DNA from: a virus
Direction: 5' to 3' (one strand)
Virus genome (UHGV): UHGV-0182401
DNA length: 40,878 bases
The translations under genes were made by a program, and so were the position numbers. Below are positions 3,930 through 10,081 of the stretch, in pieces. How positions within the stretch are numbered: the first letter of the stretch is position 1; each line of letters opens with the position of its first letter. The notes beneath the pieces were generated by a model that saw only the letters and a list, made by a program, of their open reading frames with translations, ran no database searches and was not told the origin of the DNA.

Positions 3930-4647
3930 GTTAATAAATGGCAATGCCATCAAAATGACAAGCATTGAAATCGCTGAGTTGGTAGAAAGCCGCCATAGCA
4001 ATGTAAAAGTATCCATAGATAGATTGGTGAAACGTGGCGTTATCAAGCCTCCTGCATTGCAGCACACTAACATAATCAATTATTTAGGTGTTATTACCGG
4101 GAAGCGTGATTTCTACGTCTTCGAGGGCGAACAAGGTAAGCGAGACAGTATTGTCGTTGTTGCCCAGTTGTCGCCAGAGTTCACCGCTCGCCTTGTTGAC
4201 CGCTGGCGAGAGCTTGAAGAAGCTGCGGTTAATATCCCCAAAACGCTACCAGAAGCGTTGCGCCTTGCTGCTGATCTTGCTGAGCAGAAAATGCAACTGG
4301 AAAACCAGCTCGCAATTGCCGCACCTAAAGTTGAGTTTGCCGATCGCGTTGGCGAGGCCAGCGGAATTTTGATTGGAAACTTTGCAAAGGTTGTCGGTAT
4401 TGGTCAAAACAAACTGTTTGCATGGATGCGCGATCACAAAATCCTTATTGCTTCAGGTTCCCGGCGAAATGTGCCAATGCAGGAATATATGGATCGCGGC
4501 TATTTCACAGTGAAAGAAACAGCGGTCAACACAAATCACGGAATACAGATATCGTTCACCACAAAAATCACCGGGCGTGGTCAACAGTGGCTGACCAGAA
4601 AGCTGCTCGATAACGGAATGCTGAAAGTAACAGGGGAGGCTGCTTAA
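3922..4647 (+). CDS. Roi/antirepressor-like DNA-binding protein (KilA-C/ANT-type C-terminal domain)
   Basis: 241 aa; position in nin region and domain pattern resemble HK022 Roi and phage antirepressors. Confidence 0.6.
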   Translation: MNELINGNAIKMTSIEIAELVESRHSNVKVSIDRLVKRGVIKPPALQHTNIINYLGVITGKRDFYVFEGEQGKRDSIVVVAQLSPEFTARLVDRWRELEEAAVNIPKTLPEALRLAADLAEQKMQLENQLAIAAPKVEFADRVGEASGILIGNFAKVVGIGQNKLFAWMRDHKILIASGSRRNVPMQEYMDRGYFTVKETAVNTNHGIQISFTTKITGRGQQWLTRKLLDNGMLKVTGEAA

Positions 4648-4937
4648 TGGCTAACCTACGCAAAGAAGCGCGCGGCAGAGAATGCCAGGTACGTATTTAC
4701 GGCGTATGCAATGGCAACCCTGAAACTACAGTTCTGGCACATTACCGGATGGCTGGAATTTGCGGAACGGGAATGAAGCCTGACGACCTGATCGGCGCAT
4801 GGGCTTGTAGTGACTGCCACGCGGAGATCGACCGACGCACCCATAATCTCGACAACAAAGACGCCAGACTTTACCACCTCGAAGGCGTAATCAGGACGCA
4901 GGCGATACTGCTGAAGGAGGGGAAGATTAAGTCATGA
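4647..4937 (+). CDS. ybcO: YbcO-like protein (DUF1364)
   Basis: 96 aa, MANLRKEARGRECQVRIYGVCNGNPET... closely matches remembered DLP12 YbcO; same position upstream of rusA. Confidence 0.75.
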   Translation: MANLRKEARGRECQVRIYGVCNGNPETTVLAHYRMAGICGTGMKPDDLIGAWACSDCHAEIDRRTHNLDNKDARLYHLEGVIRTQAILLKEGKIKS

Positions 4938-5296
4938 ACGAATATCAGTTTGTGCTTCCTTACCCGCCGTCGGTGAACACCTACTGGCGAAGACGGGGAA
5001 GCCAATACTACATCAGCGATAAAGGCCAGAAATACCGAAAAGACGTTCAGCAAATCATCCGCCAACTCAAGTTAGACATTTTCACCAAATCACGACTCCG
5101 CATCAAAGTCATCGCAGACGTTCCAGACTCCCGCCGCCGCGACCTCGACAACATCCTGAAAAGTTTACTCGACTCCCTTATCCACGCCGGATTTGCGGAA
5201 GACGACGAGCAATTCGATGACATTCGCGTAATTCGTGGTGTGAAAGTACCAGGTGGAAGACTTGGAATAAAAATCACCGAACTGGAGAACGCATGA
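4934..5296 (+). CDS. rusA: RusA Holliday-junction resolvase
   Basis: 120 aa with the conserved RRRDLDN motif and overall match to RusA. Confidence 0.9.
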   Translation: MNEYQFVLPYPPSVNTYWRRRGSQYYISDKGQKYRKDVQQIIRQLKLDIFTKSRLRIKVIADVPDSRRRDLDNILKSLLDSLIHAGFAEDDEQFDDIRVIRGVKVPGGRLGIKITELENA

Positions 5297-5478
5297 ACGC
5301 CACAATTCAAACGATACCAGAGCTTCTTATCCAGACACGAGGCAATCAGACCGAAGTGGCGAGGATGCTTTCCTGTGCAAGAGGAACAGTGCTCAAGTAC
5401 AACCGAGACAGCAAAGGTGAGCGTCACGTAATAGTTAACGGCGTCCTGATGGTAACGCCAGGCAAAAAGGGAAGATGA
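5293..5478 (+). CDS. ninH: NinH-like small DNA-binding protein
   Basis: GNQTEVARMLSCARGTVLKY matches the remembered lambda NinH core. Confidence 0.7.
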   Translation: MNATIQTIPELLIQTRGNQTEVARMLSCARGTVLKYNRDSKGERHVIVNGVLMVTPGKKGR

Positions 5479-5996
5479 TGAGCATAAGAGAACTAAACCT
5501 CACCAAAGAACAGCACGATTGGCTGAATTGCTGGCTTGAACTGTGGGGCGCATGGGTTTATTCAGGTCGTCTGGAAAAGCGCATGAGCAGCGTAATAGCG
5601 AAGTTCATGGAGAGCGTAGAGCCGGGAAGAGTTATGACAAGGCCAATGTGCAATGATGATGATGGAATGTTGATTTCTCAGGTCGTCGATTCCGTCATGT
5701 ACATTGACAAGAAAGCCTTTGGCATCCTCCTCAGCTACTACGCTCATGGTTCATCTAAGCGAGCAATTGCATCCTACTATCACGCGACTGCAAAGCCACG
5801 CAAGATGTGTGGACGTGGTGGCGAGGGATGGAGAAAACCTTCACTGGCAACCTGTAGAAACGAAATTGACGACATCCTGAAAGCGTCGTTATTTGTTTTG
5901 TACCAGCCAATGCAAAATGCTTTCAAAATGCGTAAACGTGTTGAGAAAGTTAAGCATGTTGCTGTTAAAAGCCTTGACATGCAATTATCCATTTAG
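5475..5996 (+). CDS. Late-gene antiterminator Q (Q21/QuuD-like family)
   Basis: WGAW and CNDDDGMLI motifs resemble remembered QuuD; last gene before the candidate late promoter. Confidence 0.7.
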   Translation: MMSIRELNLTKEQHDWLNCWLELWGAWVYSGRLEKRMSSVIAKFMESVEPGRVMTRPMCNDDDGMLISQVVDSVMYIDKKAFGILLSYYAHGSSKRAIASYYHATAKPRKMCGRGGEGWRKPSLATCRNEIDDILKASLFVLYQPMQNAFKMRKRVEKVKHVAVKSLDMQLSI

Positions 5997-6013
5997 CCAT
6001 AATTAGAAGGTAA

Positions 6014-6056
6014 GCTGCCGTTAGTGACTCTTAAGTTGCAATGGTGGCTTTTTTTG
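6014..6056 (+). terminator. Possible terminator downstream of Q
   Basis: Imperfect 9-bp stem with G-U pairs and a 17-nt loop, followed by TTTTTTT. Confidence 0.3.
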
Positions 6057-6132
6057 TTTGCACAACAGGTAAGAGCATTGAACCCGCAGACCTCGCGGAA
6101 TTGGTGAAAGGTGCCGCGCAGTGCTCTTATCG

Positions 6133-6263
6133 TTGTGGTGAACTCAATGGCGAGCTAGCAGATAGGCGACAGTGAAAATACTAGTCATGTAGCTGACCGC
6201 CGCGCGTACTGCAATCGGCAGCGCACCGATGGAAGCCGGTTCGATTCCGGCCGCCACAACCCA
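6133..6263 (+). other. tRNA-like element: canonical T-arm (GCCGG-TTCGATT-CCGGC), 7-bp acceptor-like pairing and CCA end, but about 131 nt long
   Basis: GGTTCGATTCC T-loop at 6238-6248; 6133-6139 pairs with 6253-6259; CCA at 6261-6263. No canonical D or anticodon arm could be folded by eye. Confidence 0.3.
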
Positions 6264-6423
6264 AACTGAGCCGTAGCCACTGGCTATCCTGAATTCATCA
6301 GTGATAGTTACGCTGCGGCCTTCTACACATGACCTTCGTGAAAGCGGGTGGTTCAATTCTGCTGTCTTCTTCACGTTAAAAGAGGAATTAGGCTTCGAAA
6401 ATGCAAAAACTTGCAAAAATGAC

Positions 6424-6452
6424 TTGAAAACGAGTTTTGAAACTGCATAATT
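6424..6452 (+). promoter_or_regulatory. Candidate late promoter (pR-prime-like): TTGAAA-N17-ATAATT
   Basis: Near-consensus -35/-10 with 17-bp spacer, downstream of Q and about 80 nt upstream of a strong terminator. Confidence 0.5.
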
Positions 6453-6534
6453 CCTATATGCTCGGACGTCAAAGGCGAAAGAGCTTACCCACCAGCGAAG
6501 ATGCCTTGTGCGGAGCGGTGGGAAACACATTCAA

Positions 6535-6565
6535 GCCCTTGCAGAAATGCAGGGGCTTTTTTATT
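6535..6565 (+). terminator. Intrinsic terminator (tR-prime-like)
   Basis: GCCCTTGCA-GAAA-TGCAGGGGC hairpin followed by TTTTTTATT; immediately upstream of the cargo cluster. Confidence 0.65.
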
Positions 6566-6592
6566 GGCTCAGTGCCACCAGGTGAACACCGT

Positions 6593-7144
6593 ATGCACAC
6601 GGCGATCATTTGCGCTTCCGGACCTTCCCTCACCCACGACGACTGCCAGAAAGCCATTGGCGCTGGATTACCCGTTATTGCGGTGAATTCTTCATGGCGC
6701 GCGGTGCCGGGATGCTCTCACATTTACGCGGGTGATCTGCGCTGGTGGGATGTGAACATTCCCGCGCTGCCCGATGGCCCCGAACGCTGGTCATGTAACC
6801 GGAGAGCACACACCCGATACGGCGTGAGCCTCTTCCCGACAGATACCAGCGGCACATTCAATTCGGGGCAGAGAGCAATCCTGTTCGCTCACTGGCTGGG
6901 TGCCAGTAGCATCATCCTTCTGGGCTTCGATTGCTCAATCTCAAACGGTAGTCACTGGCACGGCGATCACACAGTCCTCGATAACCCGACAGCAGCGAAC
7001 GTAAAGCGCTGGCATGGCGAGTTTGCCCGGGTTGCGGCGCAGCTGCGTGGAAGCGTCAATATCATCAACAGCAGCCGCCAGACGGCGCTTAATTGCTTTC
7101 GTCGCTTACCTCTTGAAGCTGCGATCAGCGAGGTTACATGCTGA
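6593..7144 (+). CDS. Cargo protein of unknown function (183 aa)
   Basis: ATG with GGTGA ribosome-binding site just after the terminator; the 6437 track start would run through the promoter and terminator. No confident family match. Confidence 0.55.
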   Translation: MHTAIICASGPSLTHDDCQKAIGAGLPVIAVNSSWRAVPGCSHIYAGDLRWWDVNIPALPDGPERWSCNRRAHTRYGVSLFPTDTSGTFNSGQRAILFAHWLGASSIILLGFDCSISNGSHWHGDHTVLDNPTAANVKRWHGEFARVAAQLRGSVNIINSSRQTALNCFRRLPLEAAISEVTC

Positions 7145-8079
7145 ATCCTCCGATTTACATCGATGGCATGCTGGGAATGGGAGATACCATTTACCAGCGC
7201 GCTTTCGTCAAACAACTGCCTGCTGGGACATTCATTAAGACGGCATGGCCGGAGCTTTACGAAGATCTGCCGGTGAAAGTTGTCCGAAGTGACACCACGC
7301 TCAGAACGCAGCGTAAAAATGAGTTTCGCAGTTCGGCAAAGTTTTATCCGCCGCCATCGCCACGACAGACGAAGCGAATATTTTACGGACCGTATGATCT
7401 GCGGCGCGGTTCGATATTTGATGCGATGCGACGCCAGTTCGGCGTAACGCCAGCAGCGCTTGATTTGCCATCCTTTGGCCCGTCGCAGTTTACGCACCAA
7501 AAGCCGATCGCCGTTATCCGTCCGGCAACGGTTCGTTCTGAATGGCGTAGCGACTCCCGAAACCCTGACCCCGATTACCTCCTGCGCGCATCGAGAATCC
7601 TGCGGAAACATTTCTGCGTGATTAGCGTTGCTGATTTGCAGGACGGGGAAGAGTGGCTGGTGGGTGAAGAACCAGAGGCGGATCTGAAAATGCACGCTGG
7701 CGAGCTCAATATCAAAGAGCTGATGCGCCTGGTTGAGCATGCCGCTGTCGTGGTTACGCCTGTTGGCTGGGCGCTGCCCGCTGCCATTGCGTACAAAACA
7801 CCTGTTTACGTTGTCGCTGGTGGGCGCGGTGGGCATAACGCTCCCGAGATAGTCACCGATCCGGCGATGGATTTATCCCGCGTTGGCTGGGCAATCCCGG
7901 ACAATTATTGTCGCTGCGAAGCGTGGGATCACCATTGCGACAAACGCATCTTCAACTTTGATTCAAAATTCGAGACATGGCTGAATGAAGTCGTTTTATC
8001 AGGAACTGAACAGCGGGCTGGTATTCCTCCCGGAGCTGGGCATCGGTCGTTATCCGGTTCCGGCATCACGCCCGTATGA
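7138..8079 (+). CDS. GT-B fold glycosyltransferase-like protein (GT9/heptosyltransferase-like motifs)
   Basis: N-terminal GMGD-type motif and C-terminal VVVTPVGWALPAAIAYKTPVYVVAGG resemble GT9 motifs; 7-nt overlap with the upstream gene. Confidence 0.55.
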   Translation: MLNPPIYIDGMLGMGDTIYQRAFVKQLPAGTFIKTAWPELYEDLPVKVVRSDTTLRTQRKNEFRSSAKFYPPPSPRQTKRIFYGPYDLRRGSIFDAMRRQFGVTPAALDLPSFGPSQFTHQKPIAVIRPATVRSEWRSDSRNPDPDYLLRASRILRKHFCVISVADLQDGEEWLVGEEPEADLKMHAGELNIKELMRLVEHAAVVVTPVGWALPAAIAYKTPVYVVAGGRGGHNAPEIVTDPAMDLSRVGWAIPDNYCRCEAWDHHCDKRIFNFDSKFETWLNEVVLSGTEQRAGIPPGAGHRSLSGSGITPV

Positions 8080-8599
8080 CGAGCAGTATTTCGCGAAGTA
8101 TCAGCAGCTTGCCGACACCGAAACAGGCAGAGCCTTAACGCAATCCCGTATTGAGCTGGTGGCGCGCCATTTTCACGGTCCTGTTCTCGACGTTGGTATC
8201 GGTGCCGGTCAGTTCGTCTCTACCCGACCGGGAACGCTTGGGTATGACATTAATCCGGCTGGTATCGCCTGGCTGAACGAGCGGGGCGCATTCGCTGACC
8301 TCTACGCCAGTCAGTGGCGCGCGCTGACGATGTGGGATGTCCTGGAGCACATCGACGAGCCGGAGCTGGCGGTACAGCAGGCTACAGAGTTTGTTTTCGT
8401 GTCGATCCCCATTTTTACCGATGCCGGAGACATTCTTCGCTCGCACCATTTCAGGAAGAACGAGCACATCTGGTATTTCACTGACGACGGTATTAAGCGC
8501 TGGTTTGCAGAGCAGGGCTTCGAATGCGCTGAACAGAACACAATCGAATGCCAGTTAGGGCGTAAGGGCGTCGCTTCGTACGCTTTCCGCCGCGTTTAG
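7985..8599 (+). CDS. Class I SAM-dependent methyltransferase
   Basis: Motif I VLDVGIGAGQF and downstream WDVLEHIDEP typical of the Rossmann-fold methyltransferases; only in-frame ATG is at 7985, giving a 95-nt overlap with the upstream gene. Confidence 0.7.
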   Translation: MKSFYQELNSGLVFLPELGIGRYPVPASRPYDEQYFAKYQQLADTETGRALTQSRIELVARHFHGPVLDVGIGAGQFVSTRPGTLGYDINPAGIAWLNERGAFADLYASQWRALTMWDVLEHIDEPELAVQQATEFVFVSIPIFTDAGDILRSHHFRKNEHIWYFTDDGIKRWFAEQGFECAEQNTIECQLGRKGVASYAFRRV

Positions 8600-8673
8600 T
8601 CCCCTCTTAGCCCATTGCATTTGGGTTTATTCCAGTTTCGCACACATCACCCGCAAACAGGCGAGGTCAACCT

Positions 8674-8832
8674 ATGAATAGCTCTCACGGGATTTTTGAA
8701 CAAACCATGAAATGGATCGCGCTATATCTGCCGTCAGTTTACGCCGGGTTATGCGCTCTGGGCATCTCAGCGCTTATCGACATACGCGCAGGGAAGCCGA
8801 AACTCTACACCGCCACTGGCGCGCTAAATTAA
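8674..8832 (+). CDS. Small hydrophobic protein (52 aa, one predicted transmembrane helix)
   Basis: ATG with GAGGT ribosome-binding site; hydrophobic stretch WIALYLPSVYAGLCALGISALI; just upstream of the holin. Below the ORF-track cutoff. Confidence 0.4.
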   Translation: MNSSHGIFEQTMKWIALYLPSVYAGLCALGISALIDIRAGKPKLYTATGALN

Positions 8833-8863
8833 ATAGAGCAAATCCCCTTATTGTGGGTAAGAC

Positions 8864-9187
8864 ATGAAGATGCCAGAAAAACATGACCTGTTAGCCGCCA
8901 TTCTCGCGGCAAAGGAACAAGGCATCGGGGCAATCCTTGCGTTTGCAATGGCGTACCTTCGCGGCAGATATAATGGCGGTGCGTTTACAAAAACAGTAAT
9001 CGACGCAACGATGTGCGCCATTATCGCCTGGTTCATTCGTGACCTTCTCGACTTCGCCGGACTAAGTAGCAATCTCGCTTATATAACGAGCGTGTTCATC
9101 GGCTACATCGGTACTGACTCGATTGGTTCGCTTATCAAACGCTTCGCTGCTAAAAAAGCCGGAGTAGAAGATGGTGGAAATCAATAA
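8864..9187 (+). CDS. S: Holin, lambda S type
   Basis: 107 aa, essentially identical to remembered lambda S, including the MKM dual-start motif. Confidence 0.9.
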
Positions 9188-9647
9188 TCAACGTAAGGCG
9201 TTCCTCGATATGCTGGCGTGGTCAGAGGGAACTGATAACGGACGTCAGAAAACCAGAAATCATGGTTATGACGTCATTGTAGGCGGAGAGCTATTCACTG
9301 ATTACTCTGATCACCCTCGCAAACTTGTCACGCTAAATCCGAAACTCAAATCAACAGCCGCCGGACGCTACCAGCTTCTTTCCCGTTGGTGGGATGCCTA
9401 CCGCAAGCAGCTTGGCCTGAAAGACTTCTCTCCGAAAAGCCAGGACGCTGTGGCATTGCAACAGATTAAAGAGCGTGGCGCTTTACCGATGATTGACCGC
9501 GGTGATATTCGTCAGGCAATCGACCGTTGCAGCAATATCTGGGCTTCACTGCCGGGCGCTGGTTATGGCCAGTTCGAGCATAAGGCTGACAGCCTGATTG
9601 CAAAATTCAAAGAGGCTGGCGGAACGGTCAGAGAGATTGAGGTATGA
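9171..9647 (+). CDS. R: Endolysin, lambda R type (lytic transglycosylase)
   Basis: 158 aa, near-identical to remembered lambda R. Confidence 0.9.
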
Positions 9648-10081
9648 GCAGAGTCACCGCGATTATCTCCGCTCTGGTTATCTGCATCATCGTTTGCCTG
9701 TCATGGGCTGTTAATCATTACCGGGATAACGCCATCGCCTACAAAGCCCAGCGCGACAAAGCCACATCCATCATCGCTGACATGCAGAAGCGTCAACGTG
9801 ATGTAGCAGAACTTGACGCCAGATACACAAAGGAGCTTGCTGATGCTAACGCGACTATCGAAAGTCTCCGTGCTGATGTTTCTGCTGGTCGTAAGCGCCT
9901 GCAAGTCGCCGCCACCTGTGCAAAGTCAACGACCGGAGCCAGCAGCATGGGCGATGGAGAAAGCCCAAGACTTACAGCAGATGCTGAACTCAATTATTAC
10001 CGTCTCCGAAGTGGAATCGACAGGATAACCGCGCAGGTTAACTACCTGCAGGAATACATCAGGACGCAATGCCTGAAATAA
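9644..10081 (+). CDS. Rz: Rz spanin (inner-membrane subunit)
   Basis: N-terminal transmembrane segment and strong match to lambda Rz in the first 40 residues. Confidence 0.85.
9843..10028 (+). CDS. Rz1: Rz1 spanin lipoprotein, embedded in the +1 frame of Rz
   Basis: Signal peptide [20 protein letters not shown] with lipobox VSAC and a proline-rich mature region, wholly inside Rz. Confidence 0.7.

Follow-up and report, generated by a model that had tools for sequence, protein, structure and literature searches.

An orphan late promoter and terminated leader, probably of another lambdoid lineage, between a phage-21-type late control region and the cargo and lysis genes of a virus genome

Which promoter controls the cargo and lysis genes of the virus genome UHGV-0182401, analysed here as one stretch of 40,878 nucleotides (the window)? 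The first-pass annotation had noticed a near-consensus promoter, followed about 80 nt later by a strong intrinsic terminator, downstream of a Q-like gene, and had read the pair as the late promoter and terminator on which this Q acts, in the manner of lambda pR'/tR' and of the stx genes in Stx phages. Our comparisons lead to a different regulatory map. We consider it likely, with good though incomplete confidence, that the cassette is the pR'-qut-tR' of another lambdoid lineage, which was brought in with a cargo block, became parted from its own Q, and works in this genome as a terminated dead end. The coordinates of the features are collected in Table 1.

Both elements are present as they had been described. 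The promoter is predicted to be of the sigma-70 type by its match to the consensus; reading the -10 hexamer as CATAAT gives a spacer of 16 and 10/12 consensus matches, and reading it as ATAATT gives the TTGAAA-N17-ATAATT of the first-pass annotation. From the end of the -10 to the start of the terminator stem the distance is 81 nt. The stem, AAGCCCTTGCA/TGCAGGGGCTT at 6533-6558, has 11 pairs, 6 of them G-C, around a 4-nt loop, and it is followed by TTTTTTATT, reaching 6565. Promoter-like sites by themselves occur at chance level between 4000 and 10000 (4, against 5.0 +/- 2.1 in shuffles), as they would if the site were a consensus match that arose by chance and has no function. The combination tells against this reading: a promoter with at least 10/12 matches and a strong terminator 10-170 nt downstream is found once in the whole 40.9-kb window, namely at 6424, against a mean of 0.05 in 40 dinucleotide shuffles (2/40 had one), and it is conserved across genera, always at the same genomic position. 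The probability of a chance match is therefore next to nil. By these comparisons the promoter and its terminated leader are a real, conserved regulatory element of a known kind, for which promoter activity, start site and terminator efficiency at this locus are predicted from the sequence.

Table 1. Features of the late region of the window, with positions, strand and supporting details
Feature	Positions	Strand	Details
Resident antiterminator gene Q, phage 21 type, 173 aa	5475-5996	+	PF06530 E 1.4e-25; phrog_943 E 1e-92
Resident late promoter pR'	5974-6003	+	TTGACA-N18-CATAAT, 11/12; overlaps end of Q
Resident tR' (hairpin 6012-6050 plus T-run)	6012-6056	+	Fold -18.4 kcal/mol, z -3.4; annotated in HK75 and Sf6
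Decayed tRNA region	6060-6262	+	Common to HK75; Sf6 has tRNA-Asn and tRNA-Thr; T-arm-like piece left at 6204-6262
Donor Q-like 3' remnant, last 32 codons and TAA stop	6352-6450	+	tblastn: donor Q residues 196-227 at 6352-6447
Orphan late promoter of donor lineage (predicted)	6424-6452	+	-35 TTGAAA 6424-6429; -10 CATAAT 6446-6451 or ATAATT 6447-6452
Invariant initial transcribed block	6457-6484	+	TATGCTCGGACGTCrrAGGCGAAAGAGC; 25 unique sequences
Variable middle of leader	6485-6532	+	Hairpin 6488-6522 in the window's lineage
Orphan tR'-type intrinsic terminator (predicted)	6533-6565	+	11-bp stem, GAAA loop, T6
Cargo gene 1, MptE-like/DUF115-like	6593-7144	+	phrog_4603 'alpha-2,3-sialyltransferase'; Pfam 30.9, below gathering score 34.6
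Cargo gene 2, phrog_6804, 313 aa	7138-8079	+	
Cargo gene 3, class I SAM-dependent methyltransferase	7985-8599	+	PF13489 E 1e-10; phrog_6564
Donor lambda-family holin 5' remnant, 51 codons	8674-8832	+	50/51 aa as in N-terminus of E. coli LHM10-1 prophage holin
Resident lysis genes	8864-10081	+	Holin 8864-9187 (PF05106 E 2e-30), endolysin 9171-9647, Rz 9644-10081; order as in HK75 and Sf6

The Q gene on which the earlier reading depended already has a late promoter and terminator of its own. Judged by sequence, the gene at 5475-5996 is essentially the Q of phage 21, as its product matches the Q21 chains of PDB entries 6JNX and 6P18 with an E value of 4e-90 over residues 2-163 (162 residues). The surrounding DNA (5400-6351) is 98.5% identical to phage HK75, whose annotation places pR' over the end of Q with Tr' right behind it, and the annotation of the same region in Sf6 speaks of a promoter 'nearly identical to phage 21 late promoter', with qut and tR'. 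In the spacer of the resident pR', a direct repeat, TTATCC/TTAGCC (5985-5998), is the sole perfect match to TTAKCC-N2-TTAKCC in the window, and, for a transcription start at about 6010, its C residues occupy -21 and -13. The Q21 subsite geometry matches C residues at -21/-13, and the Q21 hexamer quoted with it is TGAGCA (PMC6606751). We infer that the repeat is the resident Q-binding element (QBE), an assignment made by position and not by identity, as the repeat differs from the quoted TGAGCA.

These resident elements (5974-6056) sit 420-450 nt upstream of the orphan cassette. The presence of tRNA genes between Q and the orphan site, as in Sf6 and Stx phages, was considered and rejected, as ARAGORN finds none there; the T-arm-like GGTTCGATTCCGGCC gives a sub-threshold match to the tmRNA/tRNA clan (20 bits, gathering score 47). 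An open reading frame on the minus strand (6144-6530) spans both the tRNA remnant and a recombination joint.

That joint is the left border of a foreign block. Homology to HK75 ends at about 6351, which places the joint at ~6351/6352, and homology to HK75 and Sf6 restarts at AATTAAATAGAGC, position 8827, 37 nt ahead of the resident holin, so that the right joint falls at ~8826/8827. Just inside the left joint, a 57-codon frame without a Met has as its last 32 codons (6352-6447) a stretch homologous to a different Q, hereafter the donor Q, and a holin remnant lies at the right joint. The two remnants indicate that a block of ~2.47 kb (6352-8826) was imported, the donor having been cut inside Q and inside the holin. 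The E. coli prophages LHM10-1 and 730V1 have the corresponding uninterrupted order: rusA, donor Q, the orphan-type promoter and terminator, the three cargo genes and a lambda-family holin. As far as sequence comparison goes, the ancestry of the block, both of its joints, the loss of the cognate Q gene, the intactness of the promoter and terminator, and the separateness of the resident pR'/tR' are established. MAG Hs463, an intact relative, shares ~99% identity with the window in the cassette and only 75-90% in the cargo genes. The import may therefore be recent, and for this reason the intactness of the cassette says little about selection.

The three cargo genes stand between the late terminators and the holin, which predicts that they form a late-expressed unit. 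The reading frames of genes 2 and 3 share 95 nt. Searches of PDB and NCBIfam returned no match for any of the three cargo proteins, and Pfam none for the product of gene 2. A scan of 4000-10000 called no terminator-like site between the cargo and the holin. Among the relatives, identity breaks straight after the T-run of the orphan-type terminator: about a third continue into the same three cargo genes, and the rest continue into unrelated DNA. The position right behind the terminator is, on the evidence of these alignments, a recurrent cargo insertion point.

A second genome has undergone a comparable event. In the E. coli I3 prophage (NZ_CP195969.1; L008 4000-4700), the leader and terminator of the window and its three cargo genes, likewise without the donor Q, stand behind a foreign Q. 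This resident Q and its pR' (TTGACT...TAAATT...AACGAT) are of the lambda type, the joint coincides with the -35 and is not 72 nt upstream of it as in the window, and the terminator stem is one G shorter. The I3 prophage carries an independent orphan copy.

The relatives also identify the gene from which the remnant derives. The DNA from 6348 on is matched by Citrobacter phage Omnitron at 94% and by the Klebsiella phages Mulock and Chronis at 87% and 79%. In Mulock the match falls on the 3' end of a 214-aa gene that has ninE, ninG and a small ORF on its upstream side and a terminator, tRNAs and the lysis genes on its downstream side; these neighbours mark the position as that of Q. In Mulock, LHM10-1 and 730V1 alike, the promoter overlaps the stop codon of a gene of 214-241 aa, which comes after ninG/rusA and ahead of the terminator and the lysis genes. 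The comparison with lambda pR'/tR' therefore holds by homology, in that the relatives have the cassette directly behind a Q-like gene, overlapping it, and ahead of the lysis genes; it fails in the window for the adjacent Q, whose promoter this is not.

The cassette recurs in phages and prophages across the Enterobacterales. A search of IMG/VR with a degenerate 33-nt pattern across the promoter returned 36 contigs, in which promoter invariance is imposed by the pattern itself. The promoter, the 28-nt block and the terminator also occur in 3 phage genomes and several E. coli prophages, with more than 40 Enterobacterales phage and prophage loci overall, and a pattern over the -10 and start region recovered seven species genomes (Pantoea, Klebsiella, Kosakonia, Pluralibacter, Trabulsiella, Apirhabdus and an Enterobacteriaceae MAG). 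Among complete E. coli genomes it is present in 10 of 5,426 only. In every viral or phage locus with enough upstream DNA (37/37), the TAA within CATAAT ends an intact Q-like frame of 213-249 aa. A Q gene is likewise found at the promoter in six of the seven species genomes; in the seventh, Apirhabdus, it is frameshifted. In this genome (Apirhabdus apintestini CP138906.1; L051, 6913-7591), a full-length donor-type Q is split over three frames next to an intact promoter and leader, representing either a pseudogene or sequencing errors. We rejected it as a third orphan copy, since its Q is full-length though frameshifted.

The donor-type Q belongs to a family distinct from Q21. Pfam, including PF06530, gives no match for the proteins of Mulock, Chronis and P0001; DUF1133 is matched weakly by 8 of 21 donor Q relatives (best E 5e-6), and neither phmmer nor a profile search finds sequence kin in the PDB. 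The donor-type Q of E. coli LHM10-1 is WP_136698480.1, and the family has more distant members at 48% identity. Compared with the Q of phage 21 (6P18, 6JNX), the donor Q is 12-15% identical and 50-80 residues longer. Direct comparison with the resident Q finds no significant similarity (BLASTP E 0.13; hhalign probability 6%), the two methods recovering only a short LTxxQxxW...WG motif. Fold comparison, based on a structure model of moderate confidence (pLDDT 64.5), nevertheless assigns the donor Q to the Q21 fold. It is most likely, to the extent that the model can be relied upon, a divergent antiterminator of the Q21 fold at the fringe of DUF1133.

A candidate site for the donor Q can be proposed within the promoter, where TTGAAA is directly repeated at 6424 and 6437, 13 bp apart. 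The units at 6424 and 6437 are present, in the form TTGNAAA, in every recovered locus, a constancy that the search pattern itself demanded. With the unit at 6411, TTGNAAA occurs three times at 13-bp spacing (2 matches against 0.33 expected); this additional unit lies within the Q coding remnant and is not kept in the Chronis lineage.

The start of the predicted transcript, in contrast to the promoter, lies outside the search pattern, and its invariance is not imposed. Transcription is predicted to begin at A6458. The block at 6457-6484 varies only at positions 6471 and 6472 and is otherwise unchanged, although the 3' ends of the Q genes differ (79-87% DNA identity) and the rest of the leader is unrelated. 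Its first six nucleotides, TATGCT (6457-6462), are its only -10-like hexamer, with 4/6 matches to the pause element, A2 and T6 among them; they are invariant in all relatives, and we infer that they are a candidate sigma-dependent pause element. The invariance reaches about +27, beyond what a pause element alone would need, and suggests a constraint at the DNA or RNA level. A nested 5' hairpin is possible at 6460-6484, with GCUC..GAGC around CGUC..GGCG, and both variable positions of the block fall in its loop.

Behind this block the leader is free to change. In other lineages its middle is replaced, shorter or longer, and in some it is absent. The terminator is retained as a function: three hairpin sequences occupy its position, each with a T-run behind it, two of them differing by compensatory stem changes, and the start of the stem ranges from +46 to +127. 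A promoter and start region that do not change, a middle that does and a terminator function that is retained together form the pattern that is expected of a qut site plus tR'. In the window, the RNA from about 6458 to the terminator would measure ~105 nt, consistent with the earlier expectation of a leader shorter than the lambda 6S RNA, which has ~194 nt. Its predicted fold (-42.7 kcal/mol, z = -3.2) has three hairpins, of which the terminator is the last.

An open frame, 6437-7144, begins ahead of the predicted start (with an ATG at 6458), spans leader and terminator and continues into cargo gene 1. We considered it as a leaderless or extended version of this gene and rejected it, as in the lineages of Mulock and Chronis it meets a stop after 12-20 codons, by our own reading of the aligned sequences. 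The RefSeq start of cargo gene 1 is the ATG equivalent to 6593. Since the frame is not conserved in other lineages, it is probably fortuitous. The record of Klebsiella phage Chronis has a 39-aa 'hypothetical protein', gp66, at L005 3107-3226, within the stretch that we interpret as the non-coding late leader; it is probably an over-call.

A structured RNA of this kind raises the possibility that the cassette is kept because its short terminated transcript acts in trans as a small RNA in the lysogen. StxS, a by-product of pR'-tR' in Stx phages and an Hfq-dependent sRNA, provides a precedent (PMC7547250). The predicted RNA ends in a Rho-independent terminator, leader and terminator have been retained in two independent orphan copies, and in the closest relative the leader is conserved above the level of the cargo genes. 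On the other hand, no Rfam family matches the leader at E <= 1 in 6400-6600, and the leader middle, where a seed would be expected, is not conserved across lineages and is missing in some. A qut site is the simpler account of the invariant 5' block, and linkage to the cargo can account for the retention. We regard retention for an sRNA function as rather improbable. Taken together, the possibilities that the ~105-nt transcript serves as a StxS-like regulatory RNA of the lysogen or as a second lysis gate, or that Q21 also loads at the orphan site, are unlikely as well, if slightly less so.

The reading from which we started, in which the 6424 site is the operative late promoter of the adjacent Q and its terminator is the tR' that this Q overcomes, can now be weighed. 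It accounts for the architecture of promoter, leader and terminator upstream of the cargo and lysis genes, and it draws on the fold common to the donor Q and Q21 and on a likeness between the two promoters: in both, CATAAT is followed by a TAnGCT hexamer, TAAGCT at 6011-6016 behind the resident pR' and, at the equivalent place behind the orphan promoter, TATGCT. Against it stand the canonical pR'/tR' that Q21 already has over its own stop codon and the spacer of the orphan promoter, which, unlike that of pR'21, contains no Q21-type repeat (no TTAKCC-N2-TTAKCC in 6400-6460 with 2 mismatches allowed). The dissimilarity of the two Q proteins and the constant pairing of the element with the other Q type in its relatives weigh in the same direction. 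Q proteins generally act specifically on their own qut sites, which further disfavors this reading. We consider it highly improbable that Q21 uses the 6424 site as its late promoter. Some cross-recognition between the donor Q and Q21 is possible given the fold that the model suggests they share; loading of Q21 at the orphan site is nonetheless unlikely, given the missing Q21-type repeat and the lack of significant sequence similarity between the two proteins. Because the adjacent Q is Q21, with its own pR'/tR', and the orphan spacer lacks the repeat, the cargo and lysis genes are most likely controlled from the upstream pR' and not from the orphan promoter. The analogy with stx thus survives in part: the cargo occupies the stx position, with a terminator ahead of the cargo and lysis genes, and the control that had been ascribed to the flagged promoter most likely belongs to the one upstream.

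pR' promoters are constitutive and are terminated at tR' in lysogens (PMC7547250), and polymerase loaded with Q ignores downstream terminators (10.1101/651190). These two properties suggest how a dead-end orphan cassette and read-through by Q21 would operate together. In this scenario, the donor block of ~2.47 kb, extending from the last 32 codons of Q to codon 51 of the holin, landed between the resident pR'/tR' and the resident holin. The orphan promoter would still fire constitutively as a sigma-70 promoter, and its transcripts, lacking their own Q, would stop at 6558-6565 to give the ~105-nt RNA. In the lysogen, the cargo, holin and endolysin genes would be shielded from this promoter by the orphan terminator. 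Upon induction, Q21 would load at pR' (5974-6003) and carry polymerase past tR' (6012-6056) and past the second terminator, and the cargo would thereby be made as a late gene product alongside the lysis proteins. The orphan cassette in this genome would thus be a relic of mosaic recombination and probably a dead end.

The cassette might instead be the promoter of a moron, in which case leaky termination would allow the cargo a low, Q-independent level of expression in lysogens. A 10/12 promoter directly upstream of the cargo and the recurrent insertion of cargo just past tR' are both compatible with such a role. In a moron unit, however, the terminator would not stand between promoter and cargo; here the strong terminator (11-bp stem, T6) precedes the genes rather than following them, and leaky read-through would reach the holin and endolysin too. 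Furthermore, relatives that carry no cargo have the same promoter and terminator. A moron promoter is, in our judgment, quite improbable, and the dead-end cassette of a foreign late control region remains our preferred explanation.

With regard to known systems, the orphan cassette resembles lambda pR'/6S RNA/tR' in that a constitutive late promoter would yield a short terminated RNA and, in the relatives of the orphan, the antiterminator gene is immediately upstream. It differs in its unrelated Q family and in the absence of the lambda Q-binding and -35-like elements from the orphan site. The phage 21 cassette has a leader of ~46 nt, compared to ~105 nt here, and retains its Q gene, which the orphan has lost; moreover, the orphan sits downstream of a genuine phage-21-type cassette. 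As in the pR'-tR'-stx arrangement of Stx phages (PMC7547250), the cargo has the late terminator on one side and the lysis genes on the other, so that it would be expressed by antitermination only, and a short terminated transcript is predicted to be made in lysogens. Unlike Stx phages, the window has two tandem promoter-terminator cassettes, and its cargo consists of putative glycosyltransferase-like, phrog_6804 and methyltransferase proteins and not of a toxin. Measured against a Q-dependent late cassette in general, the sigma-70-type promoter and the terminator ahead of late genes are present, and the cognate Q and a Q21-type binding element are absent.

In conclusion, these comparisons correct the regulatory map of this genome: the cargo and lysis genes are most likely switched on from the phage-21-type pR'/tR' at 5974-6056, and the site that had first drawn attention adds a second terminator gate, behind a promoter that is probably a dead end. 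They have also located, by comparison alone, a qut-like region of an uncharacterised, DUF1133-fringe Q lineage, comprising a promoter, an invariant 28-nt start region and a terminator. If Q21 did load at the orphan site, the prophage would possess, in tandem, two late promoters that respond to Q with different specificities. More generally, cargo blocks can take their former late control region along when they move between phages of different Q types, and a superinfecting or co-resident phage that encodes a donor-type Q could act at the orphan promoter and so turn on the cargo and lysis genes.
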